Shown here: piece after piece, positions 32,701-54,700 of the stretch
Layout: each line of letters starts with the position of its first letter
Numbering within the stretch: position 1 is the first letter of the stretch
Assembly (NCBI GenBank): GCA_905178155.1
Contig: CAJINV010000015.1
Span: 581,309 to 645,308, forward strand
Reading direction: 5' to 3'
DNA from: Amoebophrya sp. A120
Taxonomy: Eukaryota > Protista > Dinoflagellata
Length of the DNA stretch: 64,000 bases
Notes under the pieces: model-generated
Told to the model about the DNA's origin: nothing
Databases searched by the model: none
What the model saw: the letters and a program-made list of their open reading frames with translations, nothing else
Made by a program: the position numbers and the translations under genes

Positions 32701-35700
32701 GCATGACAAATTCATGTAACAGTTGAGAATGTAACACTTGAGAACGCCATAGATGGTCGTAGTTTTGTCGCCAGGAGAGGAGTTTCGAAACCGAGTAGAT
32801 CTATCCTGTGCAAAAGTATCGTACTCGTAGTAATTGCATTCATGCATTACAAATCTTTTTCTTAAGGCAAATCTGCATTACAAATTTCATTTCTCATGCT
32901 GAGAAAATTTGTAATGCAATTATACGAGTACGATACTTTTGCAGTTCATAAGATCAGGTTCGTCGCAACGCTGTCGAGACACTGCTTCACAGACAGTTGC
33001 TGGTCATTGTAATTTTGCTTCAGAAACCGGAAGGGGATCATCTTTCGCGCTTCCACGTCGGACACAGAATTCACCATGGCTTCGTACAAGCTAGATATGA
33101 TCGCGAAGAGGACCGAGACGTGAGAGTCGATGGTGGTAGAGGGCGCCGTGATTGTTGAGGACGGATGTTTAAAATTACTAGATGTTGAAAAAGGACAACT
33201 CGAAGAGGATGTTGGTCTACTGGATGTCACTCTCGAGAAGAACGACTGCTGCTTGCGCACGAAGTTTGGGAAGAAATCGTTGGTCATCTCCTGTTGAAAG
33301 CTGTCCCGGCCTAGAATGGGGTGAGTTCGAGTTGCCCCCGCTATCATGCGCTCGTCATGGGAGTTCGGACTTGCTTCATACCCCTCGTCCAGAAAATCTA
33401 CTTCGCCTTCACCTTCTGTCGTACTAGCATAGTACCGTAGAAACCCCACGTCTTTATGGGGTTCTCAAACGTTACATTCTCAAGTGTTACATGGATTTTT
33501 TGGCATGCAAAATTGCCATAAGCAACCGCACGACCAAGCGGCTGCGCATGACAAATCTCCGAAGGGCTAAACAGCATGGATGTCTGTGCCAAACTTGTGA
33601 TGCTCGAGTTGCAAGGTCCTCCCTTTCACTTTCGCTTTTCTTGCATCAGAAATCCACGCAACAGTTGAGAATGTAACATTTGAGAACGCCATAGTCTTCC
33701 AATAGGAATTTCGGGTCCCGGAATAGTTTCAGGAAAATGGAGTCTAGAAACGGGTTATCAAATGTAAAAGTGTCTGGGTCTGGAAGATTCTGAGACTTGT
33801 CATGCACGTTTTGCATGGGCCATGATGTCTGCGATGCATGCCCTAGCATTGCAGACTTTTTGAGGGCTTCGCGATGCCTATTCCGCATGACAAATGCCCT
33901 CTCCGCGTAGCCAAAATCGATTCCCTTTGCTGGTCATGCAATACACATTTTTTTGGAATCCAAATGCAGCATCACAAGTTCGGACTCTTCCAGACCCAGA
34001 CACTTTTGCTTTACATACGGGTAGCAGTAGTTTTCTGCTTCATCGTGTTTCAGTATATGAACGGACAAAATGCAAAACGGGACAGTAAAAAAACCAAGAA
34101 AAATCGTGATTTGTATCATTTAGTGTGTTTACAAACAACATCCGGAACGACCGACTGCTACTCCTCCGCGGATCGCAACACTCACGACTTGATCTCCTGC
34201 AAGACAAATTCGACGAAAGAACTTGGGAGCACAACCGACTGGTGTGGTTTCGGACCGCCTGCTGATCTTCGTGCTTCATCCTCCGTCAGAGCAAAGATCT
34301 CAGGCACTTTTTTGCCATGCACGAGCGGATACGACCAAAACTTGTGGTTTAATACAGAACCACAAGGATTCGCGCCAAGGGGAAACAGAGATACGAGGGA
34401 GAAAGTCGTGACTTGTTGGCGCACGCAACCATGCTGGGATTCGTTGCTACAGGTTCATTGAAAACGAAGACAAAAGGAAACAGGGTTTGCTAATAGTTTT
34501 GGTGACAACGTCCCTCGATTATTTTTGTTTGACTGTGTCTTATTTGCCTTTATCTGCAGAAGGTCTTGATGTTGAAGTTGCAACTAAAGTTCAAGTTGTG
34601 ATGTAGTGCTGCCAAAAAATAAAAATTACGACTTGCATAGGGTAACACACAACCGGGCGTCTGGGTCCTGTAAATGATGAAGCTACTTCTACTTCAACTA
34701 CATCTCGGTGTATCTTAATTTTTTTGCGAGCGAAATCGACAACGCAACACTGCTGAGAGCGAAGTGCTGACTTCCTACCTGGAAGTGAATGAAGCTGGTG
34801 CACGAGTAGACGGATCTACACTACGAACGACCGAAAAAGTTAGCTTATTGCTGTATAGAAATACGAGTGTAAAATATTATCATTAACATTCAGAATCTGA
34901 ATCAGAAATGTGCGAGAGTTTGAGTAAACTATTTCTGCAAATCATTCTACGGATTAGAAAAAGGCGCTACTGAAAATAAAACGTGGCGATGGAGTTTGCT
35001 TTTGCTAAATATAAACTGCTGATATTGATAAACTACACCTTCTGCTTCTTGCTCGGTGTGAGCTCCTCTTCATCCACTTTTTCATTTTCCTCATCATCAC
35101 CTTCCAACTGCAGCAAGTTGATCTTCTTCTCCTCCGCCTTCATCATGTTGGCCCGCATAGATGCGAACGGGTTCAGCAAGTCCACCTTGTTTTCCGCATG
35201 CGGATTGATCACCGGCGCGCTGGAGCTGGAAGAAGCGGAACTGCTGGAGGCCGCCGTGACCTCGGACACGACCTTCTTCGCCTCCTCCGTGAACTTCTGC
35301 ATGTTGGATGCCGCCGCGGCCTTGCTCCCGATGTGTTTCGAGATGTTCTGCATGTCGATGTCGGCCATGTCGCTCGAAATCATGCAGCTCCCCAGGTCGG
35401 CCATCGCCTTGAACGCTTCCTTCTCCTTCTGCAGGCTCTTGTCCCATTTCTCGCGGGCGGTCTTGCCGGTCGGCGGCTTCGTCGGGTCCTCCTCCATGTC
35501 GAAAAAAGCCGGCACCGGCTCTCTGGTTTTGAAGGGGATCTTGAACTTCACGCACAGCTGCTCGTCGCCCTCCAGGTCGAAGCGGTACGTGGCCGGCTTG
35601 AAAACGATGCTCTCCCCGTCGCCGATCGCCGCCGTGCACTTCCACACCATCTTCAACCCCTTCTGGTAAAAAGCGGCCTTGTCTTCCTCGAATTCCCCGG

Positions 35701-38700
35701 TCACGGTGATAGGGATTTCGACGCCCCGGACCTTGGTCTTCCGCGCCGCCGCAGTGTTCAGCCAGAACTCCGAGTTGACCCCCTCAATGTCCTTTTGTTC
35801 GTAAAACTCGCTGTCCAGACGAATGTTCTCCATGGACACCTTCGTCGTGATCTTGCTGCTCATCATGGAGTGCACCTCAAAAAAATCGAGGGTGGAGCAG
35901 GCCACCGCCTTCTCCTCCAGGTCGGTCAACAACTTCTTGTTCTCATCCCGCAACCGTTGCAACTCCGCCTTCTCATCGTTGTGCGCCTTCTCGATCTCCG
36001 TCGCCATTTCCATCTGCACGCTGTCGTCGTTGGAGTTGTTCCGCTTGATTTGTTTCTTCTTCGCCTCCTTGTTTTTCAGGATCGTCGCCCGCAGCTTCGA
36101 GTACTTGGATTCGCAGTCGTTAATCTGCCGGGTCAGCGCAGTTGTCGCCAACTTCCCCTGCTTGGTGTAGTACTTCTCCTCCACGTTCTCACACTTGCCC
36201 ACGATCGCGCACTGCTTGTTGTCCAACATCTGAAACGCGCCGGCATTGGCGTAATCCAGCCGCACCACCGTCTTCGCCACCAAGTTACCGCAGGCAATGA
36301 CCGGCGCGTTGAGCAGCTTGATCTGGGTCATGCCCTTGAAGGCCTGGGGGGTAATTTCCATCAACTTCGAAATCGGCGCGAGGATGAGACTGAGCCAGCC
36401 ACCCTGCTTGTTCTGCTCCTGTGCCCGGGCCTTCGACAACTTCCACGTTTCGGGGTAGGCCAGGCCACAGTCCTCCGGGGTTAGCCCCACGACGGTTTTG
36501 GTCTGCAGGTCGGTCAACTTCAGGTTGTCGCGGTCCTGTGGTCGATGAAGTGGGTTGTTGTGAGAAGGGCGACATCAGATGGCTCTACCTCTACGCATGA
36601 CAAATTCTAAATCTTCTCCTTCAAAATCAAAATTGCAAAAATATTTTAACGATGAGATTCCACGAGTCCAAAAAAAAGCAAGCAGCTATACCGTCCACAC
36701 CAACGCCTCCCGGTCCTCGTCCCACTGCTTTCCGGTCTTCGCGTTTCTGATCATCTCGGCGATGATGTGTACGAGAATTAAGTTCTTTTGTATCCAGAAG
36801 AAATAAAAAAAGAGATCAAGGTTGGGCGGGAAGTGTGCATGACAGATTTTTTTTTGGATACAAACAGACTTATTCTGCATGACAAACTTTAACTTTTACT
36901 GTGCATGATCATGATTTTGCATGACAGACTGCGACTGGAGTTGGAACATCTTCACGCGATCGCGATAAAAATTTTGCATGACAGATTTGCTGAACATATA
37001 TTCTATCTTCCCCTGCGTCGACCTTGTTCTCATTATACTCACTGCCATACGCTCCTGGACTCGCTCCGACATTCGGGTGCCCGCAGCTTCGTCTGGCCGC
37101 AGGTAGTTGTTCCGCACCAGCTTGACGATCGCTGTCATTTCCTCCACCCCGATTTTAATTCCCTTCACCCCCGCGTACAACTCCGTCTTCACAAACCCGT
37201 CCTGGCCGCACCACAGCTGCAACCACGCAGACGCCGAGTAATCCTTCACCGGGGGCGTTTGGTACTGGAGCTTGACAGCGTATTCATGAGCAAAGCAGGC
37301 GAATTGGTTCACGCTGGTTGGTGCGGTTCGAATTTGACAAGACCAACTGCAGAGCACACAGTGATCTGCAGGTGGTAAGCACCATCTTGCACAAAAATTA
37401 ATACAGACAAATTCCGGACCAACTCTGTTGAAGCAAAACACCAACGTCTGCGCCATACAACGCGGATGACGGAGCTGTGGCGAGATGTAATGTGGGGTGG
37501 GGAGTGCGTCGTGCTTTTTGTGATGCATTACGGCACTATGCAAAGCAAATCTGTCATGCGTAGAAAGCAGCACACTACCTGATGAACTGGGCATACTTGG
37601 ACTCGTCGTTCCTCGTGGAATACCGCCGCATAAAATGCGGCCAATTGGTCGACAGCCTGGTCAACAGCTTACCCAGGTACAAGAGCTCGGTAATTTCGTA
37701 GTGATTGCGCGTGGCAATGCAATAGGTCTGTTTTCGGAACGTAAATAGAAATAGGATCAGAATTTCTCATGCAGTTTTCGAAATTAATAGGATCAGAATT
37801 TCTCATGCAATTTCCTCAGGCGAATTAAACAACAACCAGAAGCGATCACAAAGACCATCGATACCCGATAAAAATCCAGCTCCTCCTGGGGGGTGGGTTT
37901 GTGCTTCAGCGTTGCCTTGTGCTTGTTCCAAGCTTTCTCGATCTGGAATGTGAAAGAAGTGCTTTGCTATTTTGCTAACTTCCAAAAACAAAACCCAAAA
38001 ACAGCTCGCATTAGTCACGTCATCATCTTCGCACTAGTCACGTAAAGCAATTTTTTTTCCTAAGTCTTGATTGCCACCGCGCTGATCGACATCCGCGATT
38101 TTGCAAAACCAGCAATAAGGACTAGCACCTGCAGAACAACAACAAAGGCCAAACGATGGCGCGCAAGAGCAGTAAAAGCCAAACCAAGAAGAGCGGGGCA
38201 AAGGCTGCGCAGAAGGCAGCGGCGGGCAAAAAACTGCAGGCGAGGCCGACAGGGCATGGCAAAGAAAACGCAGCGGATGGGGAAGAGCGCAGCGGTTCCC
38301 TGAGTATGTGCGACGCCCGTCGATTTGCAGACCAACTCGCAAAATCAGCAGGGCGGAAAAAGAAGGCCGGCGAGGCCTACAAGCTTTGCTGGCTCCTGCA
38401 ATGTTTCACGGGGCGGAGGGGCATCGACGTTCGCTCCCTCACCCTCGCGGACGTCGAGCCGGGGCGGGTGCGCATCGGAAACAGTAAGCTGGCAAAGCAA
38501 CCAAACGGCCGCGGCCACCTGAAATGGGTGCCCATCGATCCGGCGAAAGCAACGGCCACCTTCATAAGAAACCAGCTCGCGCAGATGCGCGAGGACGGAA
38601 AAAAGGCGGGCGATAAGATTTTCAATTTTGGATATGAGGCGTTCGAGCTGAAGGTGAGGCAGGTTCGCCAAACCTTCAAAACCCGGAACGCCCTCTCCTG

Positions 38701-41700
38701 CCCCGCGACGCTGATTACGTCCCACACGCCAAGGCGATCCCTGGCGTCCCACCTGTTTCGCAACAGTGTCGCGCTATCAACGATTCAACAGATTACTGGC
38801 CACGCATCTGTTGCGACCCTGATGAGATACATCAACGCGGACTACAGTTTTCAGCTGCAGGCCGCTTCGCTCGTCAAAATTTGATAAGAAACAAAACGCA
38901 AAAAGGATTTAATTTACCATGGGAAAAAGTACGAGCACTTTCTCAGCCGTAGTGGCTTCCATCCCGGTAACACCCTCGTTTTTACAATTAATGTAAGTGT
39001 CGAGAAGTCGACTGAACTCTGGCTGGTCGAGTCGTTCATCCAAGATGTTGCACCTTGGTTGTTTTTTATTTTTGTCATGCGGATCATAGGCATCTCCCTG
39101 TGAACCACCATGATACTGCGCAACTACCATGGGGAAACCGTTAACCCTATTAATCTTACAGTAAGACCGTGTCTGGGAATTTGAATGTAAAAAAATTTCA
39201 AAAACAGATGCAATACACGAGCCCGATTTTGAACGCACGGTCCCCATACTTCGCATGGAAACGGAGGAGCGCCTGAATGCTGTGATTACCGGACACCGGG
39301 CGGAGCTTGCCCTTCGACCGGAGCAGGAAGATTTCTGGAAGGTGTTATTTTTTCAAATCTGTAATGCTGTTCATTTCGAATAGAAGAGTGGCTGCATGAT
39401 GCTTTTCAACTTTTATCTGCTATGAGAATTTGTCATGCGGAAACGATTTGAAAACAGGTAAAGTACTGGCGGTGTTGTAAAAATTCCCCTTCACCATGTG
39501 GCCGAACAACTCGATCATCCACGATAACTTCCGCAACAGGTTCTTCGCGTGCATCGCGATCATGGTGAGAATCGTAGCGGTGATGAGGATATCACCGGGC
39601 TGCGTGCGGTCGTAGCACCGGTCCTCGACGAAGTCGATAAGCTGCTGCTGATTTTCCAACTCCCCGGCGTCCTTCTTCCGGAGCAGCTCGTCCGCTTCTT
39701 CTTTCGTTGGAAAGGTAGTAGGGGTTATTTCTACTTTTTCCTTGTTGGCTTCTTGCTCGTCGGACTCCAATTTGGGCCCGCCCGGAAGGAGCATATCCTT
39801 CAAAGCCTCACCGGCGTGCATGATTTTTGCAGTTTTTTTCTAGTGTGTGCAACGCCTGAAAAATTACAAAACACTCATAAAATGCTACTACTCTATCTGC
39901 TGAAGGCGTCTTTCGAAGCATGCAATCTCGCAAATCATCAACAGGTAAGAGCACATCAAAGACGGAAAATTCAAGGCCCGAAACAGTTCTTCAAGTGGTC
40001 ACGACAGGTCCCAGAGAGAGGTATTTGCATTGGAATGAATGCTGTCCAACATAGATTTTTCTGTGAATTTCACATGTTTTTCCAAGTCGCAAAAAATAGG
40101 CGAATCAAGAATCTTGGTTTTTTCCTAGATTTTTTTTCCGCGAATGGACAATTCTTGGCCAGAACCTGGCTTTTTGGCGAAGAATTGGCCAAACGGAGGA
40201 AAAAAATCAAGGAAAAAACCAAGATTCTTGATTTGGTGATTTTTGGAGGTCGTGAAAACTCATCAACTTCTCGCTAAAAAAAGGCTACCCGCGCCTCGAT
40301 CTCATCATTAATTTAGTGGTGGAGAGTTACATTCTACGACCCAACGAACGCGGAACACACGACGAAAAAACGCAAAACGAAGCCGATTTCATGGCGAGCG
40401 CAACAACGTAGGAGGCTGGTACTAGCTGTTTTATAGAAGCACTCCACGCAGTCCACTCTACATTTTTACTACTATGAAACGCCTCAAACGTTATGTCTCG
40501 GAGCAGTCGAACCGCCACTGCTACGTTCCAAAACCGAATAAACAAGCGGAGCCAAAGTTGTACTAAAATTATACAAGAAAATGCTTTGAGCCAGAGCCGG
40601 CTAAGAAACAAACTAAAAGATCACGCACCTGTGCACAAACATCAGTTGTCTTCATCACTTGACTCCTCACTGTCACTACCATCCTCCACCATCTTGCTGT
40701 ACTTCGCGGTGCTTTGAATGTACTGCTGTATCACCTGCCAGGATGCTTGCTCCTCAGCATCAGTGACATCCGGAAGGGGTTCGTTTTTGNNNNNNNNNNN
40801 NNNNNNNNNNNNNNNNNNNNNNNNNNNNNNNNNNNNNNNNNNNNNNNNNNNNNNNNNNNNNNNNNNNNNNNNNNNNNNNNNNNNNNNNNCGCAAAAAATA
40901 GGCGAATCAAGAATCTTGGTTTTTTCCTAGATTTTTTTTCCGCGAATGGACAATTCTTGGCCAGAACCTGGCTTTTTGGCGAAGAATTGGCCAAACGGAG
41001 GAAAAAAATCAAGGAAAAAACCAAGATTCTTGATTTGGTGATTTTTGGAGGTCGTGAAAACTCATCAACTTCTCGCTAAAAAAAGGCTACCCGCGCCTCG
41101 ATCTCATCATTAATTTAGTGGTGGAGAGTTACATTCTACGACCCAACGAACGCGGAACACACGACGAAAAAACGCAAAACGAAGCCGATTTCATGGCGAG
41201 CGCAACAACGTAGGAGGCTGGTACTAGCTGTTTTATAGAAGCACTCCACGCAGTCCACTCTACATTTTTACTACTATGAAACGCCTCAAACGTTATGTCT
41301 CGGAGCAGTCGAACCGCCACTGCTACGTTCCAAAACCGAATAAACAAGCGGAGCCAAAGTTGTACTAAAATTATACAAGAAAATGCTTTGAGCCAGAGCC
41401 GGCTAAGAAACAAACTAAAAGATCACGCACCTGTGCACAAACATCAGTTGTCTTCATCACTTGACTCCTCACTGTCACTACCATCCTCCACCATCTTGCT
41501 GTACTTCGCGGTGCTTTGAATGTACTGCTGTATCACCTGCCAGGATGCTTGCTCCTCAGCATCAGTGACATCCGGAAGGGGTTCGTTTTTGTATTCGCAC
41601 ATCTGTCCGCAGAGCTCCCTGCGGGCCCGCGCGATTGATTCCCGGTCCAACATCCTCCCCGTAGTTACCCTGGAAAAATTCACATCCTCCAAACTAGTCA

Positions 41701-44700
41701 AACCGCCACCACGAACCTTGCGGCGAAACCGGATCGGAATTTTTCCCGACCAGTTGCTGTTCTCCGGTCGGAAGATGATGTACAAATTTTCCAGCAGGGA
41801 GGAGTGCTTTTTTTCTGGCACTGCGTCAAACATGTTGTAGTTCTTCCAAGGGTCCTCGCGCTCGGTGCGCGACGATGCGGCTTTAGAAAAGGAGGCCCCC
41901 TTGACATCCTTGTTCTTCGCCGATTCCGCATTCCGCACAACAACATCGGCCCGGAGGTACTCTTTTGCCTGCCAGCGGTTTTTGTCGACGACGACATACA
42001 GCTGCTTGTCGTCCATCGTCCAGGAAAAATGCGCCGTGGGGTTTGAGTGCCATTTGAACATCTTCGTGAGCGTGGTCGGGGCGGGACGGGATGTCCAGTG
42101 GGCGACCGTTTTCACCGAAGGCTGCGCAAGCTGCACCGGGTATCGCTCGCACTCTCTTCCTGCGATGGTAAAAACATCCTTGAGCGGGCCGCATGCTAAC
42201 AACCATCCCCGCTGCTTCTTTGTCCTGAAGCACAAGTAGGGAAACTCCGGGTCTGGGTTGCGGCCCGTCGGAACGCGCACGACGAGATCACCAGTCTTCA
42301 CGTAGGTCATTATGTTGACCTTCGACCCGATGTGCCACTTCAACGTGGCGGGAACGTCGAAGAAGTTCTTCACAAGCTCCGGAACGACTGTAGCACCATG
42401 CTGACCAAGGGGACCACCGACACGGCCGGGCTGCTTCACCGCTGTGTTCTCGCTGTAGTCGGCCTGCGCATGCAGTGCGTGCTCGAGTGTTGGGTGGACG
42501 TACTCCCGGTCGTTCACCTTTTCCAAATCCACGAGCACCTGGTTCTCAACCACCATCTCCTCCTCCATCCCGAAAAGGTCATCTTCCTCCGCCTCGTTGC
42601 CACCCGGCGCCGCAAGTCCGCGCACCTGCCGCGCACGCTTAGCAGCCTGCTTCCCCTTTTCGTCTTTCGCGGTCGCAAATCTGTTGTCGCACAACTTCCG
42701 CACAAGTTCTCTGTTTTCCTTGTACTCGCTGAAGGACATGCTGAGCTCGTCGCCGATTTGTGCGCGAATCCCTGCGCGCGTGCACCCGAGATTTGGCGCG
42801 ACCCGTTTGTTGTTGGTGGTAGTACTGTGTCGCGCTTCTGTGACCTGCGACGACGAAACCATGAGGGGCACCAAGGGGCCGACGATCTCCTGTAGCCGGG
42901 CCGACATCGCTCCGCCGTTTGCGACCTGTTCAAGATCGGTCTTGTGCGGGATCTGGATCCAATTGAGAAAACAATCGCAGTCATCTTTGGGCAGGAGGAG
43001 CAACAACTGTGCTGATTTTTTCGCCGTATCGTCCACCGTGTCCTGCAGCCCTCGCAACAAATTCGGATACGTCCAGAGCGTCTTCTCCCGCGTCGGCAGC
43101 CGGATGAAAACATTCAACAGCAACAGCATCCCCGTGGTATCTCCCGGCCTTGTCAGCATGTGGTTCTCGATGGCCCGGAGCAGCTCGGTCTTTGTTTTGG
43201 GTTTGTGGCAGTGGTGCGCCATCTCCGCCAGTCGGACATTGGTGTAGACCTGTTTCAAGTCGGCCTTCAGCCGGTTGCTCTGCGACGAGACGATGGTTAA
43301 AGCGGCGCGAGCAGATTCACACGTTGACCAAAACGCCGGGTCCGCTGCGGACTTTTTCGCCGCTTTAGCCGTTGCGCGGTTTTCTTCTTTTTTGTTTTTT
43401 GGTTCCAGGTTCCGCAGGAGCTGCTGTATCTGGGTGCGGTTTTTCAACAAATCCTCAACACAGTCCGAGAACGTCTGCCACCGGTGGGACTGATACTCCC
43501 GGATCGCCATGTGCTGCGGATCCCCGGTCTCCGGCCCCCAAAAGTGAATCGCTTTTTGCAATTTCCCGACCTCCCCAACAAACCCGTCCCGCATGGAGTT
43601 CAAAACCTGGAGATGCTCGCCGTCCAAAAGCGAGTACTGGTGGTGCAAGCATACGAGCTGGACCACGAATGTTTGGATCAGGAGGCCGCTTTTTTGCCCC
43701 CGCGCCTTTTGCTCCTTGCGTTTGACGTTCAGCGCCCTGCTGCACGTGCGCAAAACGTTCATCGCCTTGACGACATCGCTGCCGCAGTCTGTGCAGCTGA
43801 TTATCACCAGCAAGGGGTCCGACGGGAAGTCATCCACCGTCGATCCCGGCATGGGGATCAGATCCGCGAGCAAGTGGTACAACTCGCATAGGTACGAAAG
43901 ATAACCACGCGCAACGGAGCCGTGCTTCGTCGGTGGCGGCACAAATGTTTTCACAACCGGAACCCCGTCCACCATTCGCACCAACGTGACGTCGACCGCC
44001 AGAAGCTCGGCAGAGCGGAAATCGGTCGCGTCGGGAGCTATGCGGACCACAACGAGCGGTCGCAACAACTTCGGAACCTGATCAAGCTTCGCCTCCTTTT
44101 TCGCAAGGTGTTCTGCCAACTTCGAATCCGCCTCCAGACGCATCTCACCCAGGAATCGCCCGTTGAAAACAAAAGGCTGCCAGTACTTCTGCCCCTTCGG
44201 GTTAATGTCCGTGTCGAAGATGCAGTGAAGGTCGCGCTTGGTCCGCATGTCGTAACACTTCCCGGCCAGGACCTCACTCCGCTCTGCCATCTTCCGATAC
44301 GTGTCGAGCAGCTGCTTCATGTAATCGTCCGCGCGCTGCTTCTCCGCCTTCGCTTCGTCGTGTGATTTGTTGTTTCCCAGGATGTTGAGTTTCTGCCGCT
44401 TCGCGGCTCCACCAGCTAAAGCCAACTCGCCACCACTCTCACCGCACCCCAACTCAAAAACCCTGCTTCCCGTCGGCGCTAGCATCTCCATGGTGCCGAG
44501 CACGTTGAACCTCGTCTTCTGCGTGACAATTTCGGAAAAGCCCCAAAGCTTCTGCAGTAGCGCGATCTTCTTTGTTGATGTTCCAGTACTTGTCCCGACC
44601 ACGTACTGCAAGTACTCATTTCTTTCCTTCCTGGTTTCCAATTTTTCAAATTCGGTTTGGGAGTAGTGGGCCTCGAATTCAGCCCAGACGGAGCGACGCT

Positions 44701-47700
44701 GCGCCTGTCGAAGCCGGTTTGAGTTTCATTGATTAGTAGCTCTAGCTGGAAACGGAATTATGCAGACGAGATGGATGGGAACTAGTACTAGATGTAGAGA
44801 CGCGAGCTGCATGACAAATTCAAAAAGCAGACTTGATTTTGAAAATCTAATGACGAATAGATCTAACTGTAACTGTAACCCTAAACCACAACCAGGCACC
44901 TCTCCCGTCCCATCTTCGTCATCCACTTTGCTGTTGGGGCCTCGCTTCGGCCGCTTGCGACCTGTGGAACCAAGGTCGCAGTTGGGAATCTTCAAGCCGT
45001 GCCGCTCCTCCATTTGGGACAGAACGAACGAGCGGATGGAGGAAACGCTGGCCCATCTCGCCGTTACCGCGCCGCCCGCGGTTTTTGCCCGGCGGTTGTA
45101 TGTCCGCTGGAGACTTCTCTCGCACGGCGGAGCAGTTGTTCCCTCGCCCGTGGCGGCGATCTCCTCGAGCCTGGTAATGACCTCTACTACATCGCCCCAC
45201 CCATCGATGGATTCCACCAGTTCGCGCGCCTCGCCATAATCGCTTAGCACCTGGACCGTTTTCGAAGATGCGCCAAAAACTCCTTCGTCGCTACTGGATC
45301 CGCCGGCGTTCTGGTTTTCGTCGAGGCCAACATCGACGTCGATGTCGTCGATGCCTGGTATAAAAAGATTCGCGACGTCGTCCATCTCTATGCCGGGAGG
45401 AAAGCGGCGGTATAGCACGATAGGACGGAAGACACAATGCGCACGCAGGTAAGAGGACACGACTACGCCATTTTTTTTTTTCGGTCTTCGTCTTTTAATA
45501 TCGTGGTCGAAGTCGAAGCGATTGCATGTTTGTATTGCGTAAGAAATCAAAAGCAAGACCAAATATAAAAACAATAGGAAAAGTTGTTATGGGTTTCCAC
45601 ATAATCAAAGTCAGTTTTAATTTACAATAAAGGCAAGGCAGTGTCAATGTCAAATCTATCAATAATGAAGGGCGGCTCTCTTATTTTCGTTTATCGTTAT
45701 CGCATCAGAATCAAAATGAAAAAAAAAAACTACAGGTGCGAGGCTCGGGTGCATTTCGTGACAGCAGGATGGGGAATACTACTTACGCAATCAGCTTTAC
45801 ATTCATTAGCGACAACTATGTGCGACGACAACAACTCCCAGACAGACACTAGCGACGACCATGATGCTCCAGCTCCTGTACGAAAATTGTAACGACTTGA
45901 ACTCCAACCCCCCGAAAGAGAACAACCGAAGAAAACACGAGCCCCCCTTCATGATAACGAGGTCGATTTGCAGTCGAGACCGATGTGAGCTCTGCACGTG
46001 CACGAGCACTTCCCGAGGAAAAAACACAAGTGCGCCACATAGACCAACAACTACGCCACGACACACCTGTGGTCGCTGTCGGGCTACTACTGAAGATCAA
46101 GATTGTACGCACACAGCAGCAGCCGTGAATTGTCAGGGCGCGGTGGGATCACAATCACCAAAAAATGAAGACCTACGCACATGATACGACGGACTCGGGT
46201 AAACGTCGCGCTCGTGAACGAGATGAAAACTATTTTTGGTTCCATGAAACAAAGTCAAAGCGCAAGTGCTAGCGCACTTATCACTGCGCCACCTCAGATC
46301 TCAACCTCGTACGCCCTTCGCACCAGGGGAGAACGGAAGATCTTCCCGCACGGCCACAACCTGCTCTTCCAGTTCACCACATCCACAGCAGCGTCGCATT
46401 ACAAACCTCCCCGACCGGTCGCGATACCTGATGTTGTTAGTAGTGGCTGTTGCTGGCGAAGGAGATGGAAACTCAAAAACTTATGATGAACATTTGAACT
46501 GTTGGCATTACGCATGAGATTTGAAAAAATTACGAACGTGAAGAGCAAGGCGCTCCAACTTGTTTCTTCAACATGCATGCTCATTCGGTGCTTTATGCAA
46601 ACCATTTCCAGCAACAGACACTACCAACATCATCGGCATCTGTAATGCTAATTCCAATGCGGAGCAACAGCAATAAATCTTCCCTGAGCTGCCCGGCCAT
46701 GATGTGATCCGCTCCCGGTTTCTCATTATCAACAGGCCGGCCATGTTCCTGGTCCACTTCCAACTTCTTCGGACTTTCCCTATAGGCGAATCCTTGTGGT
46801 TCTGTATTAAACCACAAGTTTTGGTCGTATCCGCTCGTGCATGGCAAAAAAGTGCCTGAGATCTTTCAATGTGGTTGCTGATCTTCGCGGGCCGAGCAGA
46901 ATGATCGCGTTCAGAAATCCGAAAAGACCATCGTCTGCACTTCCGCGTCGCAGCTTCGTTGTTGTCGATTCCAGTCGTTGTCGGTCGGCCAAGCGGTATC
47001 GTCGCGTCGCCTCACACATCGGTTTCGAACAAAGCAAAAGCTACAAATCACGATTTTTCTTGGTTTTTTTGCTGTCCCGTTTTGCATTTTGTCCGTTCAT
47101 ATTTCAGTACCACGCAGGAACTGTCCAGGGCGTAGGAGAGCAGGTGGGACAGTTCCTCGTGGAGACAAGTGAAGAAGGTGAGTGGAGCGACTTCTGTGAG
47201 TAGACCGCTATCATTTGCTGTACTGTAGTCCTCTTCTCCGTTCTTGCCGTGATCTTTTTGCGCACCTGCTGTACTAGTACCGCCACCTTCATCCACCCTA
47301 GTAGAAGCGGCGGGGGCCCCGTGCTGGTGTAGCTGCCCGGCAGAATTACGTCCGCCAGATTGATGTTCCCGCAAGCACAGGCCGGCGACGATGTCCGAAA
47401 CTTTTGCCACAACCCGCTTAGAAGTACCAGACGATGATCCACCAGCTGCACGAGAAAAGGCGCTGGAAACTGTACAGCGTCCCTCACATATCATCAGGTT
47501 CTTGAGTAAAACCGGCGTGACAAACAATTTCAGCAAAAAGCACAAATCTTCGCTGTCCATCGTGAACAGTTCCATTGCTTTTCTGTTCAGCACCACAGTC
47601 TCAATCAGCTCCAGACAAAGCAACCGGGGCCACCGGACGGAGCACAGCCAAAATCCCGGCTTGGTTTGGAGAAAGTCCTGGTTTATTTCCTGAAACTGGG

Positions 47701-50119
47701 AGGACGCGGATCGCTGCAGCAGATGGCCACTTCCGGTTGATGCTCCACTGGGGTTCGTAGAAGACGAGGACCCGCCCGTGATAAAATTCATTCCTGCGCC
47801 GAGAATGCTGGTCACTGGATTGAGCTTAGAAGCTGCTGCTGCTGCTGTAACCGCACTGGAAGTAGGTCCTTGTTGGCCAATGTTTATTCCCAAATTGAGA
47901 TTAGACCCAGCTGCGCTGCCCCCACTTCCGACTGGTGTGCCGGGGATCGAAGATGAATCTCCAGTAGTGCTTTGTTCAAGAGCAGCGGCTCTCCTACACT
48001 CCGCTATCTCCTCATCGCTGCAATCCAGCATGACACACAAATCCTGCAGGAATAAATAAAGCAGTCGGACAGCGACGTCGGTGCTGTTCGTGGGTTGTCG
48101 TGGCTTCGTGTTGCGGAATTGCGAAGTTTGAATCGACGCGGAAGCGGAAGCCAGCATGTTGGACATCTTGTTCCGGGCTGTGGGATTGAAGGGGGGCTTG
48201 CTGTAGTTTCCAGAACCTGCATTGGCTTTACCTCCTGGTACAGACGAGGTAGGTCCTCGTCCTAGCAAGCCGAATTTCGGCAAAATCCCCGAGTCCAAAT
48301 CCTGCAGCCATGGAGGTGGCGGGTGCGATATTACCGGCTTCTTGTGTCGGCCTTTTTTGCTTTTCTGGTGGCGAGAACCAGCTCCCGCCGACTCGTGATG
48401 GTTATCATTATCTGCAATACCTGGCGGGAGAGAAGAAGACTCCCCGGTGCTTCCGGAGATCGGTAGTTGCCTCCTCTGACCAGTAGAGGACGAAGTTGCA
48501 CCCGCCCCCCCTCCGTCCGTTTCAGAGCAGGTGGACTTTTCGTTATCGCTGTGTTGTGCGGTGTATGCATTGCAAAAGTATCGTACTAGTATAAATCGCA
48601 ATACAAATTTTTCCAGAAGGAAAAATGGAGCTTGTGATGCTGATTTCGCTAAGAAACAAGATTTGTCATGCATAATTTCAATTAGTACGAGTACGATACT
48701 TTTGCACAGGATACGGTGGTACCTCCGGATTCGCCCGTGGCACTAATTGGAATGTTGGTGCTGCTGGCATGAAGATTTATTTGCCGCGAAGAAGATGATC
48801 CACCAGCGTTTTGATGTTCCACCGCCTGACATGCCGTTTCTGTCAACTGCTCTGCCAGTTGCAACAGGCTCCCCCGGGCGACGCTCTGGACGACTGGGGA
48901 GGGAAGTTGAAGCAGGATGGAGAAAACCTACGTTGATAACAAGTTCAGAATTTTGGATGCAGCTGCTTGTCGCGCAAGCCTACGCTATGCGAGACATCAC
49001 ATGCACAGCATGCGGATCTACTGTGCATGCCAAATCACGGTCACTTCTCACTGAAACAGCCGAGGTAAAAAAATGTAGAGTACGTCACGCTGGCGCCATA
49101 TCAAATGCAAAAATGTAAATGTCTGGGTCTGGAATGAAGCAACTTGCCATGCCAAATCTGAATCATGTAAAAATCTGTGTTGCATGATTACCAAAAGCTG
49201 TCCACTTTTCACCTAATCGAGAGACTGTTTCTCATGCAGGATAGGCATGATAGAACTCTCACAGAATCTGTCATGCTATGTCCTACATGCCAGACCTCAT
49301 GGGTCATGGAAAACCTGCATGACAAGTCTAGCACTCTTCCGGACGCAGACATTTTTGCATTTGATACGCCAGCCTTACCTGCAAAAGCTGCTCCACCACA
49401 ACTTCCCTGCTTGAGTGGTCACCAGGCGCCTGTAGTCCGCCCCCGGGGGAAATGGAACCAGCTCCAATTGTTCCTGGTGATCTGCCTCCCCTATCGCCAA
49501 CGCCAACCGTTCCCACCATTGCCAACTCTCTCGACCCCGCGATGCGTTGCAAAATTTGCAAAATCTGCGTTGCAATGGACTCATTGCTGCCAAAAGCGAT
49601 GGCCTGCTCGCGGAGGAGGTTAATGAGTGTGATCAACTGCTCCGCGTTGCTCGCGTCGTTTTGAATTTGTGTTGCGGTGACAATATGAGAAGCTGGATTT
49701 GTCATGCTGGAAGGAGATGTTGAAACAACTGCTGGTGATGAGACCAACCCAAAGTTTTCGACCACCCGTAGCGCGATCTTGAGACACACCGGTATCATTT
49801 TCACATTCCCGGTTTCGCAGCATTTTCGCAGGCACGTCACGTAAGTTTTCAGAGCGGTTGGTGCAGTAGAACTATCGCCCTTGGTGCTCGTCGTTGTGCT
49901 TCCAGTGTCGGTCGTGAGATTCCCTATCTGCTGACAGGCGGCAATGGCTTGCTTGACCTGCTGGCTTCGACCAAAAGTCGAGCATTCCGCAAGCAACGCT
50001 TGAAAATCCTTCTCCAGCTCGTGGGCGAAGATTTGCAGGGTTTTCTCGAAAGGAGGTGCTCCGGGCCCGCCAACCCTTCCTCGGGAGGAGGAAGACGAAG
50101 AGGAGTTCGTGGCTTTCAT
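14800..50119 (-). CDS. MON2: MON2-like (Sec7/BIG-related Golgi-endosome trafficking scaffold), ~35-kb gene split by ~22 introners, canonical introns and a 13-kb transposon; 3' end approximate
   Basis: N-terminal DCB-like LEKDFQALLAEC...CLRKCCETGNVKMIPVCL...IATQILQIL; HUS-like RLLCLELIETVVLN; VNVSFTAIKYLWESAD; WLQLFRQLQISCLDPRREVRDCALKSL; KQWGQSV; C-terminal LILCEERAIRDPL. The exon joins I tested are in frame after removing the element plus one DR. Confidence 0.85.
15269..15576. mobile_element. Introner family A
   Basis: tatggaactgtcaggattgaaat / atttcaaacctgacgcttccata; DR ccgtc; join ART-GDAVQEIF in frame. Confidence 0.93.
16418..16567. mobile_element. Introner family C
   Basis: tatcctgtgcaaaagtatcg / cgatacttttgcagtgcata; DR attct. 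Confidence 0.92.
17205..17920. repeat. 17-bp tandem minisatellite (GCTCGAAATATTTCCCA)n with degenerate flanks
   Basis: Near-perfect array ~17326-17820, no spacers. Confidence 0.97.
18100..18650. repeat. Degenerate ~105-150-bp tandem repeat, about 5 units
   Basis: Recurrent core ttcccctgggtagccagaattgctgYgctaaacacagcaactcgg. Confidence 0.85.
20107..20255. mobile_element. Introner family C
   Basis: tatgaactgcaaaagtatcgcactcgtataaatgc / gcatttatacgagtacgatacttttgcacaggata; DR ggagg. Confidence 0.93.
21526..21793. mobile_element. Introner family B
   Basis: tatcaactgtaaaagtgtctgggtct / agacccagacatttttacatttgata; DR gccgt. Confidence 0.93.
22271..22597. mobile_element. Introner family H (single copy here)
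   Basis: tattgagaggaaaaatcccccctccccatatcaaa / tttgatatggggaggggggatttttcactttgata; DR acaac. Confidence 0.92.
24005..24267. mobile_element. Introner family B
   Basis: Family B TIRs; DR gcagt. Confidence 0.93.
24319..24626. mobile_element. Introner family A
   Basis: Family A TIRs; DR agaaa. Confidence 0.93.
24960..25221. mobile_element. Introner family B
   Basis: Family B TIRs; DR aatcg/aatcc. Confidence 0.9.
25285..25415. mobile_element. Introner family I (diverged)
   Basis: tattgacagaaaaaaaacc / gttttttcctggaagata; DR gctgt/actgt; related to 57364-57481. Confidence 0.75.
26015..26253. mobile_element. Introner family D
   Basis: tatggcgttctcaactgttacaccctcaactg / cagttgagaatgtaacgtttgagaactccata; DR cccag. 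Confidence 0.93.
26349..27178 (+). mobile_element. Non-autonomous Helitron-like element
   Basis: 5' TCTATTATA; 3' GTAG; GC hairpin gccccggc-gtcg-gccggggc (27148-27167) 11 nt before the end; sits between host A and T with no TSD. Confidence 0.65.
27340..28350. repeat. (CGGCCAA / CGGCCAAATCGCAAA / GGGAAACGGCCAAC)n minisatellite spanning an N gap
   Basis: Direct inspection either side of the gap 27574-28275. Confidence 0.9.
28640..29390. repeat. ~18-bp purine-rich minisatellite (GGGAAGCACGGGGAAAAC)n
   Basis: Direct inspection; N gap 28979-29078. Confidence 0.9.
30515..30778. mobile_element. Introner family B
   Basis: Family B TIRs; DR agcgt/ggcgt. Confidence 0.9.
30913..31177. mobile_element. 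Introner family B
   Basis: Family B TIRs; DR atcct. Confidence 0.93.
31485..31695. mobile_element. Introner family J (single copy here)
   Basis: tatccaagaataaaaa...gtgtaa / ttacac...ttttttcttggata; DR tgttc. Confidence 0.88.
31767..31916. mobile_element. Introner family C
   Basis: Family C TIRs (diverged); DR gccaa/gccag. Confidence 0.85.
32516..32751. mobile_element. Introner family D
   Basis: catggcgttctcaa / ttgagaacgccata; DR gatgg. Confidence 0.92.
32802..32950. mobile_element. Introner family C
   Basis: Family C TIRs; DR agatc. Confidence 0.93.
33455..33693. mobile_element. Introner family D
   Basis: Family D TIRs; DR gtctt; join LLED-VGFLRYY in frame. Confidence 0.93.
33756..34017. 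mobile_element. Introner family B
   Basis: Family B TIRs; DR cgggt; join YCYP-FLDSIF in frame. Confidence 0.92.
34056..34115 (+). repeat. Left TIR of the 13-kb element
   Basis: tatgaacggacaaaatgcaaaacgggacagtaaaaaaaccaagaaaaatcgtgatttgta. Confidence 0.96.
34293..34373 (+). repeat. Left 81-bp internal inverted repeat containing a 13-8-13 palindromic site (34337-34370)
   Basis: Exact reverse complement of 46786-46866; core aaaacttgtggtt-taatacag-aaccacaaggatt. Confidence 0.95.
35033..36517 (-). CDS. Transposon cargo ORF, at least 494 aa, unknown function (coiled-coil middle, acidic tail, C-terminal PSKKQKV NLS-like motif); probably has upstream exons at ~36690-36790 and ~37050-37340
   Basis: Long open frame with strong GC3 bias; no family recognised. 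Confidence 0.7.
   Translation of the reverse strand: MTDLQTKTVVGLTPEDCGLAYPETWKLSKARAQEQNKQGGWLSLILAPISKLMEITPQAFKGMTQIKLLNAPVIACGNLVAKTVVRLDYANAGAFQMLDNKQCAIVGKCENVEEKYYTKQGKLATTALTRQINDCESKYSKLRATILKNKEAKKKQIKRNNSNDDSVQMEMATEIEKAHNDEKAELQRLRDENKKLLTDLEEKAVACSTLDFFEVHSMMSSKITTKVSMENIRLDSEFYEQKDIEGVNSEFWLNTAAARKTKVRGVEIPITVTGEFEEDKAAFYQKGLKMVWKCTAAIGDGESIVFKPATYRFDLEGDEQLCVKFKIPFKTREPVPAFFDMEEDPTKPPTGKTAREKWDKSLQKEKEAFKAMADLGSCMISSDMADIDMQNISKHIGSKAAAASNMQKFTEEAKKVVSEVTAASSSSASSSSSAPVINPHAENKVDLLNPFASMRANMMKAEEKKINLLQLEGDDEENEKVDEEELTPSKKQKV
38156..38884 (+). CDS. Tyrosine recombinase (phage integrase/Xer/Fim-like catalytic domain), 242 aa
   Basis: Complete R-K-H-R-H-Y set: FTGRRGIDVRSL (R), GNSKLAK (K), SHTPRRSLASHL (HxxR), TGHASVATLMRY (H...Y). 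Lys/Ala-rich N-terminus. The only clear plus-strand gene in the window. Confidence 0.93.
   Translation: MARKSSKSQTKKSGAKAAQKAAAGKKLQARPTGHGKENAADGEERSGSLSMCDARRFADQLAKSAGRKKKAGEAYKLCWLLQCFTGRRGIDVRSLTLADVEPGRVRIGNSKLAKQPNGRGHLKWVPIDPAKATATFIRNQLAQMREDGKKAGDKIFNFGYEAFELKVRQVRQTFKTRNALSCPATLITSHTPRRSLASHLFRNSVALSTIQQITGHASVATLMRYINADYSFQLQAASLVKI
38909..39821 (-). CDS. Putative multi-exon cargo gene of unknown function, convergent with the recombinase
   Basis: Coding-like segments 39460-39821 (MHAGEALKDMLL...) and 38909-39150, separated by AT-rich intron-like stretches. Confidence 0.4.
40089..41590. other. Apparently identical ~700-bp duplication on both sides of a 100-N gap; probable assembly artefact
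   Basis: 40089-40789 matches 40890-41590; ORF translations are identical. Confidence 0.8.
40103..40233. repeat. Long imperfect palindrome downstream of the transposase (also at 40905-41035 in the duplicated block)
   Basis: aatcaagaatcttggttttttcct...aggaaaaaaccaagattcttgatt arms. Confidence 0.85.
41444..45385 (-). CDS. hAT-family DDE transposase, predicted 2 exons (45385-44900 + 44704-41444, ~1248 aa)
   Basis: hAT motif order: VRIAPDATD (D1), SCTDCGSDVVKAM (D2, cf. TDNASNMVKA), VCLHHQYSLL (CxxH), HRWQTF (cf. TRWNS), SSSQVTEARHS (E, cf. SSAxSERxFS). Phase-0 GT-AG intron 44899-44705 with a CTACTAAT branch-like motif. Confidence 0.85.
46786..46866 (-). repeat. Right 81-bp internal inverted repeat containing the 13-8-13 site (46789-46822)
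   Basis: Exact reverse complement of 34293-34373. Confidence 0.95.
47042..47101 (-). repeat. Right TIR of the 13-kb element
   Basis: tacaaatcacgatttttcttggtttttttgctgtcccgttttgcattttgtccgttcata. Confidence 0.96.
48564..48713. mobile_element. Introner family C
   Basis: Family C TIRs; DR cggtg. Confidence 0.93.
49099..49366. mobile_element. Introner family B, apparently inside a canonical GT-AG intron
   Basis: Family B TIRs; DR cgcca; minus-strand CAG|GTAAG donor just outside at ~49378. Confidence 0.88.
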
Positions 50120-51772: not shown

Positions 51773-54700
51773 TCACTGCGAAAACGTGACTCCCTGGTTC
51801 GTGATCCGCAAATCGAGAAAAACCTTCTTCTCCGCAGCTGCTGCGCTAGCGAACTTCTCGTTTTCTGCTGCTGGACGACCCCCTTCTCCGCCACTGCAGC
51901 TCAAAGTGTCCTTCACCAACTCCATCTTCCGAAAGGTTGTAGCGCTGAAAGAGCCGGCGCTGGTTGTGGAGGCGCCAAACTGGTTCATTGTTGTAGAAGG
52001 GAAAACATGTTGGCCAACACTTCCCTCAACTTTCCTCAACTGCAATCTGGTGTGCACCCGGCTGGCCACCTGCTGTCCGCCGACCGAGTCGAGGGTGACG
52101 TTGGTGTCGTGCTGGTTGAAGCTTGACATTGTGGAAGCAGCAACTGAAGAAGTTGTTGCACCAGCAGTGTAAGAAGTATTGCTAGAAGAAGAAAACTTGT
52201 TGCGCACCTGATTTGACAAAACCACCGTTAATTTTCCCTCGTCCGCCAGTTTCTGCAGCAGCGAAAACACTTGCTGTACGTTTTGCTTCTGTTTGGAAAC
52301 CAAATCCATGAAGTTTTCCAAGATCAGAAGCTGGTGCGGCTGGTGGACCTGTGATTTTTTTACGTGTTTGATCTTGGCATCGAGAACAAAGTCGCCGCAT
52401 GTTCTTGTTCTTGATTTGATATGCATCGAGAACAAATTTTTATTTTTCGCAGATATAGTACCTCCTTCCCAGCATGACCCACTTCCACCGGCTTGACAAC
52501 CTGCAACAACGATTGCAGGATTGTGACCACATTCCCTGCGCCAGCAGCTCCTGAGCCGGTCGCGTTATTCGCGTCCTTTACTTCCGTATAGTTGATGTAT
52601 TTCAGCAGGTGATTTCCGGACAAACTCACCCGTTTCAAAAACGCTCCGTTTGAAGAACTGGACTCCAAGACGAACACCTGGCTCAAATTGTTGTTGTTCA
52701 TCATACCGTTGGTTTGGTGCTGTGCCGCTGGACCGCTTGTTGAAGCTGCACTTCCGACGTTCTTCTCAATTATCGGAGCAGGACTACTGCTGCCATTCAC
52801 ACCGAGAACCTGCTTTCTCGGCGCCGGACTGGGCATCCCCGGCGGCGACAGGCGGACTGCGACGACGAAGGAAACCGCGAGCTGCGCGAGGAAAGAGGTC
52901 TTCCCCGAACCGGATTCCCCGAAAACCTCCACGATCTGTCCGGGTTTGAAAAAGCCATTGGTCAGGAGTTGGTCGTTAAAGATGGTGGAAGCAGTGACAA
53001 CTGTACTTGCGGAGGCAGGAGCAGCAACGTGACCGCAGCTAGAAGTGGTTTTACTTTTGGTATGCTCGTCGTCCTGCAGTTCTAATTCGTCCGACGCCTG
53101 GCTCCACTGCTTCTGCTTCAGCGCTGCATCGGTTTTGCTCTCGACGACAACTGTCAAAACCGGTTGATGGGCGGTTTCTGCTGCTAGATCCTGCTCTCCT
53201 TTCATCTCATTGTGTGCAACAGCAACTAAAACAGAAGAAGAAGCAGAGCTGGTATCTTTGTTCGCCACAGCATCAGCACTTTTCTTGCTCAGCACCGGCG
53301 ACGAGACTGGTTTGAAGGGAGTAGTTTTCACATCGGGTTGTTTTCCCGAGGCGGTGATGAAAGTCGGGTTGGAAATGGGGGAAGTTTTTTTCGGATTCTG
53401 CAACAGCGCGCTGGACAATACATCTTCGGAGTGTAGTACTGGTAAGGACTCATCGTTTGTTTGATCCAGTTGTTCCCCAACAAACTTCTGCTTTTTCGCC
53501 GGTGGTTTGATCGATTCCGCCGGGGAGACGACGTTGGATTTGTTGATTCCATCCTCAATGCTGCAACTGCTCTGCGACAACTTCTCCACGTCCATTTTAT
53601 CACTGGCCGGTGGGGATTGCGACAGCATTCCCTTCTTCTCAAAATTCAGCGGTTCGATGCTGTTCAACAGATCGCTCTTCAAAGTAGACGAACCGGACGA
53701 GGGTTTTTTGTTAAGGAGGCCGGACAAAGCGTTCTCCTTAGCAGAGTCAAGATCCGTTCTTACTCCGACGTCCGTGCCCTCGGGAAACAGCTTCGCCCCA
53801 CCTAACATCGAATCCGGCGCCGCCAAACCGGTGGAATTCGCGTAGTTGGAGAGCATCGTCGCGGAGGTGTTCGGCGTGGAGGTGGGCATTTTCGTGTTTT
53901 TCATGGCACTTCTGCCTGCGTTGATGTTGAAACCAGCATGAGAAACTTCTTGTTCATCTTCCTCACCTTCGACTTCCATCATGTTCTTTACAAATAATTT
54001 GGACGACATCGGGCTGACATTGTCGTTGTGACTCGTGGTCTCCATCGGATCCTCGTTGCTGCCCGCCACACTGCTGCTCTTCACACTTCCCCCGGCCGAC
54101 AGCTTCGACGCCAGAATGCTCCCCAGCCGGGAGACGGACGGTTGGTGCCCGAGTTTGATCCGCACCCGCTCTTTATGAATTGCAAAAGTATCCTCGTAGT
54201 CGCACTTGTTGTATGAATCGCATAAGAAATTTGCTCAACGTGACAAGTGGAATTTGTCATGCTGAATCACCTAAGAAACCAGATTTGTCATGCAAGTCTG
54301 GCACTTATACGAGTGCGATAGTACTTTTGCGATGCATACTCCTCCTCATCAGACAGCTCTTCCAACGCTTCCTCGAGCACATCGTCGGTTATTTCCTTCT
54401 CCTATCCTGAGTAAAAACGTACCCACACCATAGTCAAGATGGGGAATCGGCTAGACAAATCCACAAGTTTTGGCTGTTTTGCATGACAAATTTGGATTCG
54501 TAGTGTAGTGCTGTTTGAGCTAGCTCAGCAGCATCACAGATCTAGCATACCATGCTGATTGGAGCATGACAAATTGCAAAAAACGACTAGAAAATGCTTC
54601 TCATGGGGCTCCGCATGAGAAACATTTTCAGCATGCAGATTTGCATTACAACTCTGGTGTGGGTACGTTTTTACTGAGGATATCTCCAGAACGTTGTTCT

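Follow-up and report, generated by a model that had tools for sequence, protein, structure and literature searches.

Within a 64,000-nucleotide stretch of the Amoebophrya sp. A120 genome (GenBank assembly GCA_905178155.1, contig CAJINV010000015.1, positions 581,309 to 645,308 of the forward strand; the window, hereafter), we have found a transposon of ~12.2 kb that encodes both a transposase of the aspartate-aspartate-glutamate (DDE) type and a recombinase of the tyrosine class, and we regard it as a new hAT-like, recombinase-bearing family. The element (34056-47101) is bounded by terminal inverted repeats (TIRs) with a flanking target site duplication (TSD), is inserted in a host exon, encodes a transposase with conserved catalytic motifs and a conserved tail together with a recombinase that has its catalytic residues, and contains inverted 13-8-13 sites. 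In the reading that we favor and consider probably correct, this is a young, low-copy TIR transposon that entered an exon with an 8-bp TSD, carrying genes for a likely hAT-related transposase and for a tyrosine recombinase that, by prediction, inverts the element's interior. Common ancestry or a common end code likely connects it to the introners of this genome, which are short non-coding insertions removed from RNA, and it is likely not their mover. A first-pass annotation of the window had stressed a candidate link between the transposase and the introners while overlooking the recombinase and its putative sites, which are more defining of the element than its tie to the introners.

The two ends of the element are 60-bp TIRs, the left one (34056-34115, plus strand) starting with TAT and the right one (47042-47101, minus strand) identical to it at 59 of 60 positions; the 15-mer tip cited in the first-pass annotation is found at 34056 (plus) and at 47087-47101 (minus). 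These ends are flanked by the left (34048-34055) and right (47102-47109) copies of the 8-bp TSD. Complementarity of the two bases adjoining the tips means that the sequence can be read equally well as a TIR of 61 bp and a TSD of 6 bp; a 5-bp TSD is impossible. The assembled span includes an artefact of 802 bp (40088-40889), an exact 702-bp duplicate of 40890-41591 together with 100 N, which represents an unmerged contig overlap and makes a false second copy of the transposase 3' end; we recognize it as such because the element interior is covered by one DNA contig whose 11,664 bp are exactly the length computed without these 802 bp, and the size of ~12.2 kb is what is left after subtracting them. 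In-silico removal of the element with one TSD, along with four neighboring introners and their own TSDs, yielded an open frame of 793 codons, and the element therefore sits in a host coding exon. The part of that exon upstream of the insertion (47102-48563, minus strand) belongs to a gene with a weak MON2/Sec7/BIG1-like resemblance, its profile matches to PF16213 (E 9e-4) and PF12783 (E 0.02) both being below cut-off.

With respect to copy number, the DNA contigs of run X1 had a depth of 41.6 over the interior vs. 25-27 over flanks of similar G+C content. Differences from the window numbered 4 across 5.7 kb of the element, and three flank pieces showed no difference. These data suggest about two near-identical copies, as of a young, low-copy element. 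A contig break at 47101 was rejected as a sign of other insertions because the two element ends share 31 letters, which renders the break uninformative in this regard. At 50964 and 51153 are two minus-strand TAT sites with a likeness to the element's TIR (10-base identity; gapped match); they were rejected as further element ends as no partner end was found.

The transposase is encoded on the minus strand by ORFs (open reading frames) of 219 and 1015 aa, which form a single reading frame split by one stop (44726-44728) that in-frame GT-AG intron candidates would remove. Because a profile built from homologues matches both the 219-aa ORF (at the homologues' N-termini, E 3e-6) and the 1015-aa ORF (E 1e-86) in one frame, we consider it likely that the gene comprises two exons encoding ~1,250 aa, with a probable 5' exon at the start of the 219-aa ORF (44900-45385) and a main exon at 41444-44725 (ATG at 44491), the latter harboring D154, D235, C281xxH284, R337W338 and E552. 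A HMMER scan of 1.84 billion proteins recovered 14 homologues (E 2e-83 to 5e-5), among which 13 are Amoebophrya AT5.2 gene models or cluster-mates of one and the last is an unnamed fragment. When 12 of these were aligned, two short fragments being excluded, R337 was conserved in all 12, D235, C281, H284 and W338 in 11 each, E552 in 10 and D154 in 9, with the motifs and the tail kept at 19-31% identity. The extension of ~450 aa after the catalytic Glu, which had been described as unusually long, measures 463 residues after E552 and is matched in 9 of the 12 homologues at E < 1e-9, hence a family trait.

The order D-D-CxxH-RW-E, which we take to be a hAT signature, is laid out here with 317 residues between the second D and the E; a pattern of the DDE, CxxH and RW residues, composed after the protein had been viewed, matched a single one of 20,000 shuffles and, among 17 long ORFs, also one. 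In a language-model atlas, those neighbors having a Pfam family were mostly hAT (PF05699, PF04937, PF27041) with scores of 0.82-0.83, which is a lead only, and the predicted topology comprises five strands, an all-helical insertion and then the helix bearing the E (low confidence, pLDDT [predicted local distance difference test] 36). We conclude that this very divergent transposase is likely a conserved DDE enzyme with a hAT-like motif order, belonging to an unnamed Amoebophrya family. Downstream of its stop, within the element, is an imperfect palindrome of 155 bp (80%) at 40092-40244 (= 40894-41046).

The tyrosine recombinase (38156-38884, plus strand; 242 aa, mainly the catalytic domain) matches PF00589 at E 2.9e-13 and 50.4 bits (cut-off 27.1), with an intact frame and all of the R-K-HxxR-H-Y residues present. 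Among its seven homologues, six at 51-62% and one at 31%, four are AT5.2 genes, and for two of those four the gene number differs by two from that of a transposase homologue (g1758/g1760 and g2071/g2073; chance ~4e-5), the same pairing as in the window, where one gene separates recombinase from transposase. The recombinase profile found two weak generic loci, which were dropped as unrelated, and had no match in viral contigs. Each element end is followed inward, at a distance of about 240 bp, by an 81-bp block, the left one (34293-34373, plus strand; core 34337-34370) being identical to the right one in inverted orientation (46786-46866, minus strand; core 46789-46822). The core of each block consists of 13-bp arms, of which the inner 9 are perfect, around an asymmetric 8-bp spacer, which is the layout of lox/FRT-type sites; such a 13-8-13 site occurred in 11 of 20,000 shuffles of the block and at 0.07 per shuffled element. 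We predict that these cores are the recombinase sites.

In terms of mechanism, the transposase would bind the 60-bp TIRs, excise the element and insert it with an 8-bp stagger, by analogy with Hermes. The recombinase would act at the two inner inverted sites, turning the 11.6-kb gene block around between outer arms of 240 bp that stay in place, and this flip might serve as a switch of promoter context or as a resolvase step of the kind proposed for the ciliate Tec elements. The TAT-N7/8-AAA tip may let non-canonical splicing by the host handle the insertion as an intron. As for the introners with their strict 5-bp TSD, they could represent miniature inverted-repeat transposable elements (MITEs) of another enzyme, for which the leading named candidate would be a member of this transposase family, paralogous to the one described here, that cuts with a stagger of 5 bp.

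To characterize the introners, we scanned the window for TAT...ATA elements, obtaining 25 with an exact 5-bp TSD and none with a TSD of 3, 4, 7, 9 or 10 bp, vs. 0-1 elements in each of five shuffled windows. Four rows had 8 bp, three being tandem-repeat artefacts and one the 12-kb element itself, and a further five TAT...ATA elements had a 5-bp flank with one mismatch. In an unbiased scan over all start trimers, TAT with 5 bp was again the top class (23 rows; next class 8). The first-pass statements that nearly all elements end in TAT...ATA and that introner TSDs are 5 bp (25 of 25 exact TSDs here) as opposed to 8 bp for the large element are thus borne out, with one exception at 2746-3165, a TIR element of 420 bp that ends CAA...TTG and has a 5-bp TSD, and so adds another type of end while sharing the introner stagger. 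We found no target preference among the 25 introner sites. Since the 24 different perfect 5-bp repeats at these sites indicate a staggered cut, the tyrosine recombinase was rejected as the introner mover. Two larger TAT...ATA elements of 3-4 kb with 5-bp flanks, at 17029-20040 and 26306-30454, consist internally of tandem repeats (with units of 17 bp at 17.2-17.9 kb), and tblastn of both revealed no transposase homology.

Fifty introner tips share TAT, a G or C, and then an A run at positions 11-15. The tips agree with the end code TAT-N7-AAA given for A120 introners (PMC7789003). The terminus of the large element had been likened to the starts of two families, C, here a 149-bp introner with a 5-bp TSD (20107-20255), and G, here the 3.0-kb element at 17029-20040 with internal tandem repeats and a 5-bp flank with one mismatch. 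Scored with a matrix of the 50 tips (positions 4-16), the element tip reached 3.9 bits, exceeding 785 of 790 other TAT sites taken as controls, the introner median being 9.8. The resemblance is therefore upheld as more than chance. Its extent is short: at 15 bases, 9 of the 790 controls did as well as or better than the best pairwise tip match, and at 20-30 bases 58-120 of them did. Blastn of the introners gave no match in the element. Hence the element tip obeys the introner end code but fits no introner family beyond ~15 bases; the code is common to both over this length, 5 of 790 controls score as high, and there is no match at the level of a family. The TSD of 8 bp likewise departs from the 5 bp to be expected if the introners were MITE partners of this element.

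A second proposed link, the motif GCATGACA, fared less well. As the first-pass annotation had stated, the motif does recur inside the element (9 copies vs. 0.45 expected); it is also present in host DNA outside introner-like sequence (15 copies vs. 1.6 expected), and its copies in the element range from 2.3 to 5.4 kb from an end, the nearest at 2,292 bp, as compared to 32-144 bp for a relaxed form of the motif in introners. Being host-wide and more than 2 kb from the element ends, GCATGACA was rejected as a subterminal transposase site and as a link between element and introners. A sense-strand splice signal is a tentative reading of it that 6 of 9 copies fit by eye. The sequence GCAT(G/C/T)ACA is very abundant, with 141 copies in the window; 18 of 24 short introners carry it in both orientations, and it is enriched in host non-coding DNA. 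It is a candidate host splicing or chromatin motif, and is absent from the supplement text of the founding introner paper (PMC7789003).

What then moves the introners? The first-pass suggestion that they are MITEs of related hAT transposases, not necessarily of this one, loses the support of GCATGACA and of hAT5 and retains that of a DDE enzyme with hAT order, a tip beyond chance and a multigene family in AT5.2; because that paralogue family exists, a related transposase as mover is a real possibility. The appeal to hAT5, a subgroup with 5-bp TSDs, holds insofar as TSD length varies within hAT, as hAT5, hAT6 and hAT7 exemplify (PMC12730594), and is not supported as a specific tie: hAT5 and hAT6 belong to an animal Blackjack lineage (PMC12730594), and the element has a TSD of 8 (or 6) bp. 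Stated more fully, a paralogue cutting with a 5-bp stagger would have produced the introners as its MITEs, with the element as a sister lineage that retained the tip. We think this quite possible, if somewhat short of probable, given that the tip likeness exceeds chance, that the end code published for introners of A120 is TAT-N7-AAA (PMC7789003), that 13 divergent AT5.2 homologues (gene models or cluster-mates) exist, that hAT lineages with 5-, 6- and 7-bp TSDs are known (PMC12730594), and that the earlier searches, confined to known domains or to a 10-kb limit, would miss such an element. On the other hand, no paralogue has been seen that combines TAT ends with a TSD of 5 bp, no whole-genome search having been made, and the element and the introners are devoid of internal homology, with a likeness that fades past 15 bases.

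A less likely explanation, though still a possible one, is convergence imposed by host splicing, whereby survival in an exon would require a TAT...A-rich end and the introners would owe their spread to an unrelated mover, e.g. an integrase-like (Ginger-like) enzyme. Integrases commonly give 4-6-bp TSDs; many unrelated introner families have only the short code in common, and the element too is located in an exon. In addition, family 38 of A120 combines TIRs with ORFs that show homology to Copia/Gypsy, and several other families are said to be similar (PMC12130899). Yet no integrase-like enzyme was seen in the window, and transposases contact the first 15 TIR bases, as in Hermes (PMC10368747), so that common ancestry accounts for the tip as simply. 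We also entertain, as a rather doubtful extension of the favored reading, that an Amoebophrya-specific giant hAT-like clade with a recombinase switch might be the missing introner engine, in which a paralogue with a 5-bp stagger would move the TAT...ATA families while the 12-kb elements would be spliced out as giant introners with a flipping interior.

Several observations weigh against the favored reading and are gathered here. The TSD length is known from a single insertion, readable also as 6 bp, and none of the GT-AG pairs excises the element precisely; the raw RNA runs X9 and X10 yielded 0 and 1 reads. Regarding the hAT assignment, no Pfam hAT family (PF05699, PF04937 and PF14372 included) matches the transposase or any of its 14 homologues, a PDB search with the family profiles, taken to E 10, brought up no transposase, a BED finger (CxxC...H...H/C pattern) is absent in the window ORFs and in 9 homologues, the atlas recognition value of 2185 is below the guide of 2300 with neighbor scores under 0.9, and both single-sequence fold models have a mean pLDDT of ~35. 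As for the recombinase, its AT5.2 pairing is a matter of gene numbers, not of a map. Lastly, the one contig that speaks for inversion can be read otherwise: record 9 of run X3 (363 letters) matches 46786-47097 without difference and then continues with 51 unlike letters, departing at the exact inner edge of the block (46786) as a flipped interior predicts, but a chimera of the library, or another copy whose interior differs, would give the same picture, and the run is only guessed to be RNA and shows no depth on the transposase.

Other searches for relatives of the transposase were also negative. Queries with the transposase in Pfam, PHROGs, PDB and word-based searches gave no match; word-based protein searches and the metagenome and viral scans recovered no homologue, and tblastn of the window disclosed no other transposase. 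The low-confidence model of the transposase had no Foldseek match at E 0.001. Structure comparisons of the low-confidence models returned weak RNase H-fold rows, among them a Piwi row with Z 6.1 and a root-mean-square deviation of 3.7 for 124 aligned positions over residues 112-285, and no hAT chain among the matches listed. For the tail, neither the atlas nor Foldseek gave a match, which with a model of pLDDT ~35 is uninformative on its fold.

Such results leave some room for a transposase that is not hAT but another DDE lineage with CxxH and an insertion domain (Mutator-, P- or Kolobok-like, or a superfamily of its own), in keeping with the lack of a hAT profile match, the long TIRs, the missing BED finger and the unique 460-aa tail; CxxH and 8-bp TSDs occur outside hAT too. 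We consider this unlikely as the invariant RW between CxxH and E, as well as the contexts of both D residues and the E, are hAT-like and the atlas neighbors are hAT. It is more improbable still that the element's own transposase moves the introners in trans, leaving a 5-bp TSD on them and 8 bp on itself. This enzyme is the sole transposase seen by tblastn in the window, and the tip is shared. However, the stagger length is a property of the transposase enzyme, and with 8 vs. 5 bp the element's own transposase is an unlikely mover; none of the 25 exact introner TSDs is 8 bp, the TIRs diverge after 7 bases, and about two element copies stand against very many introner contigs (hundreds in run X1 with different flanks at introner positions). 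An endogenous virus (Polinton-like or virophage) integrated via the recombinase can be dismissed almost entirely, for although TIRs, a size of 12 kb, a tyrosine recombinase and several unassigned ORFs would suit it, Pfam and PHROGs gave no capsid, packaging ATPase or polymerase match among the window proteins, viral contigs held no relatives of the recombinase, transposase or TIR (0 matches for the TIR), and an 8-bp TSD with a DDE ORF already explains the insertion.

Returning to our preferred view of a hAT-like transposon with a recombinase, comparison with known systems is instructive. The element resembles Hermes and other hATs in being a TIR element with an 8-bp TSD, the D-D-CxxH-RW-E order and a predicted helical insertion before the E (PMC10368747). 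It differs from them in transposase size (~1,250 vs. 612 aa) and TIR length (60 vs. 17 bp), in having neither a profile match nor a BED finger, and in possessing the 460-aa tail, the recombinase, cargo and TAT tips, though hAT7 shows that hATs can carry cargo (PMC12730594). The ciliate elements Tec1/Tec2, Sardine and Thon likewise combine TIRs, a DDE transposase, a tyrosine recombinase and extra ORFs (PMC3464196, PMC3212892), and, similarly, they are found within genes and have a connection to short derivatives that are excised. In contrast, they are Tc1/mariner (DD35E) elements with TA targets that are removed from DNA, whereas the Amoebophrya element is hAT-like, its short counterparts are removed from RNA, and, unlike in the ciliate elements as described in these sources, discrete 13-8-13 sites are visible. 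With the A120 introners the element shares TAT...ATA ends plus an A run, short direct repeats and exon insertion (PMC7789003, PMC12130899), while they differ from it in being short and non-coding with a 5-bp TSD in the window. Judged by sequence, the recombinase and its putative sites would be akin to Flp/FRT, Cre/lox and FimB/FimE in combining a tyrosine recombinase with palindromic arms, an asymmetric 8-bp spacer and inverted sites. In those systems, inverted sites yield inversion. The Fim invertases, like the element's recombinase, consist of the catalytic domain only; the setting here is a eukaryotic cut-and-paste transposon.

Our literature search found no description of this transposon family. 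PMC7789003 reports no transposase in A120 and on that ground argued against transposase-mediated spread of introners. In the supplement of PMC12130899, the 21 of 58 A120 families that we compared are mostly classed as 'TIR DNA, Unknown'; none of these rows is finally classed as hAT. Among 60 of the 63 occurrences of 'hAT' there, the others standing after the A120 rows, a single A120 row is concerned; it has hAT5/hAT6 terminus matches and is classed otherwise. The search for introner movers in PMC9860276, made within 10 kb by BLASTP, would miss this element. A transposase family that is invisible to Pfam and PDB profiles, on an element bearing the introner end code, reopens the question of the introner mover and provides a target for the search, namely paralogues with 5-bp TSDs. 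Moreover, a hAT-like transposon with a conserved recombinase and lox-like sites extends the DDE-plus-recombinase design beyond the Tc1/mariner elements of ciliates; the role of the recombinase, only guessed for Tec elements, becomes directly testable, and the element may hold a new eukaryotic recombinase-site pair.

The remaining genes of the element are putative cargo. The middle gene, between recombinase and transposase (38912-39839, minus strand), lies in three pieces (39423-39839, 39201-39344 and 38912-39352) and is likely spliced; its pieces match P0011, P0012 and P0026 (E 3e-9 to 2e-3), and it is conserved beside transposase homologues. By eye it has a ParB/Srx-like look, to which Pfam lends no support. 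Another cargo gene (35033-36574, minus strand), of unassigned function and conserved in the element of a relative, encodes 442 aa from its ATG, in a frame open for 513, and matches the C-terminal part of P0011 (24% over 343 aa, E 2e-7); this gene and the middle gene match parts of fused AT5.2 gene models. An unassigned Cys-rich ORF of 232 aa (36896-37594, minus strand) has no Pfam or PHROGs match and may be partly non-coding. Outside the element, a host ORF at 52360-54045 has a weak RecA/Rad51-type P-loop match and is a candidate Rad51 paralogue.

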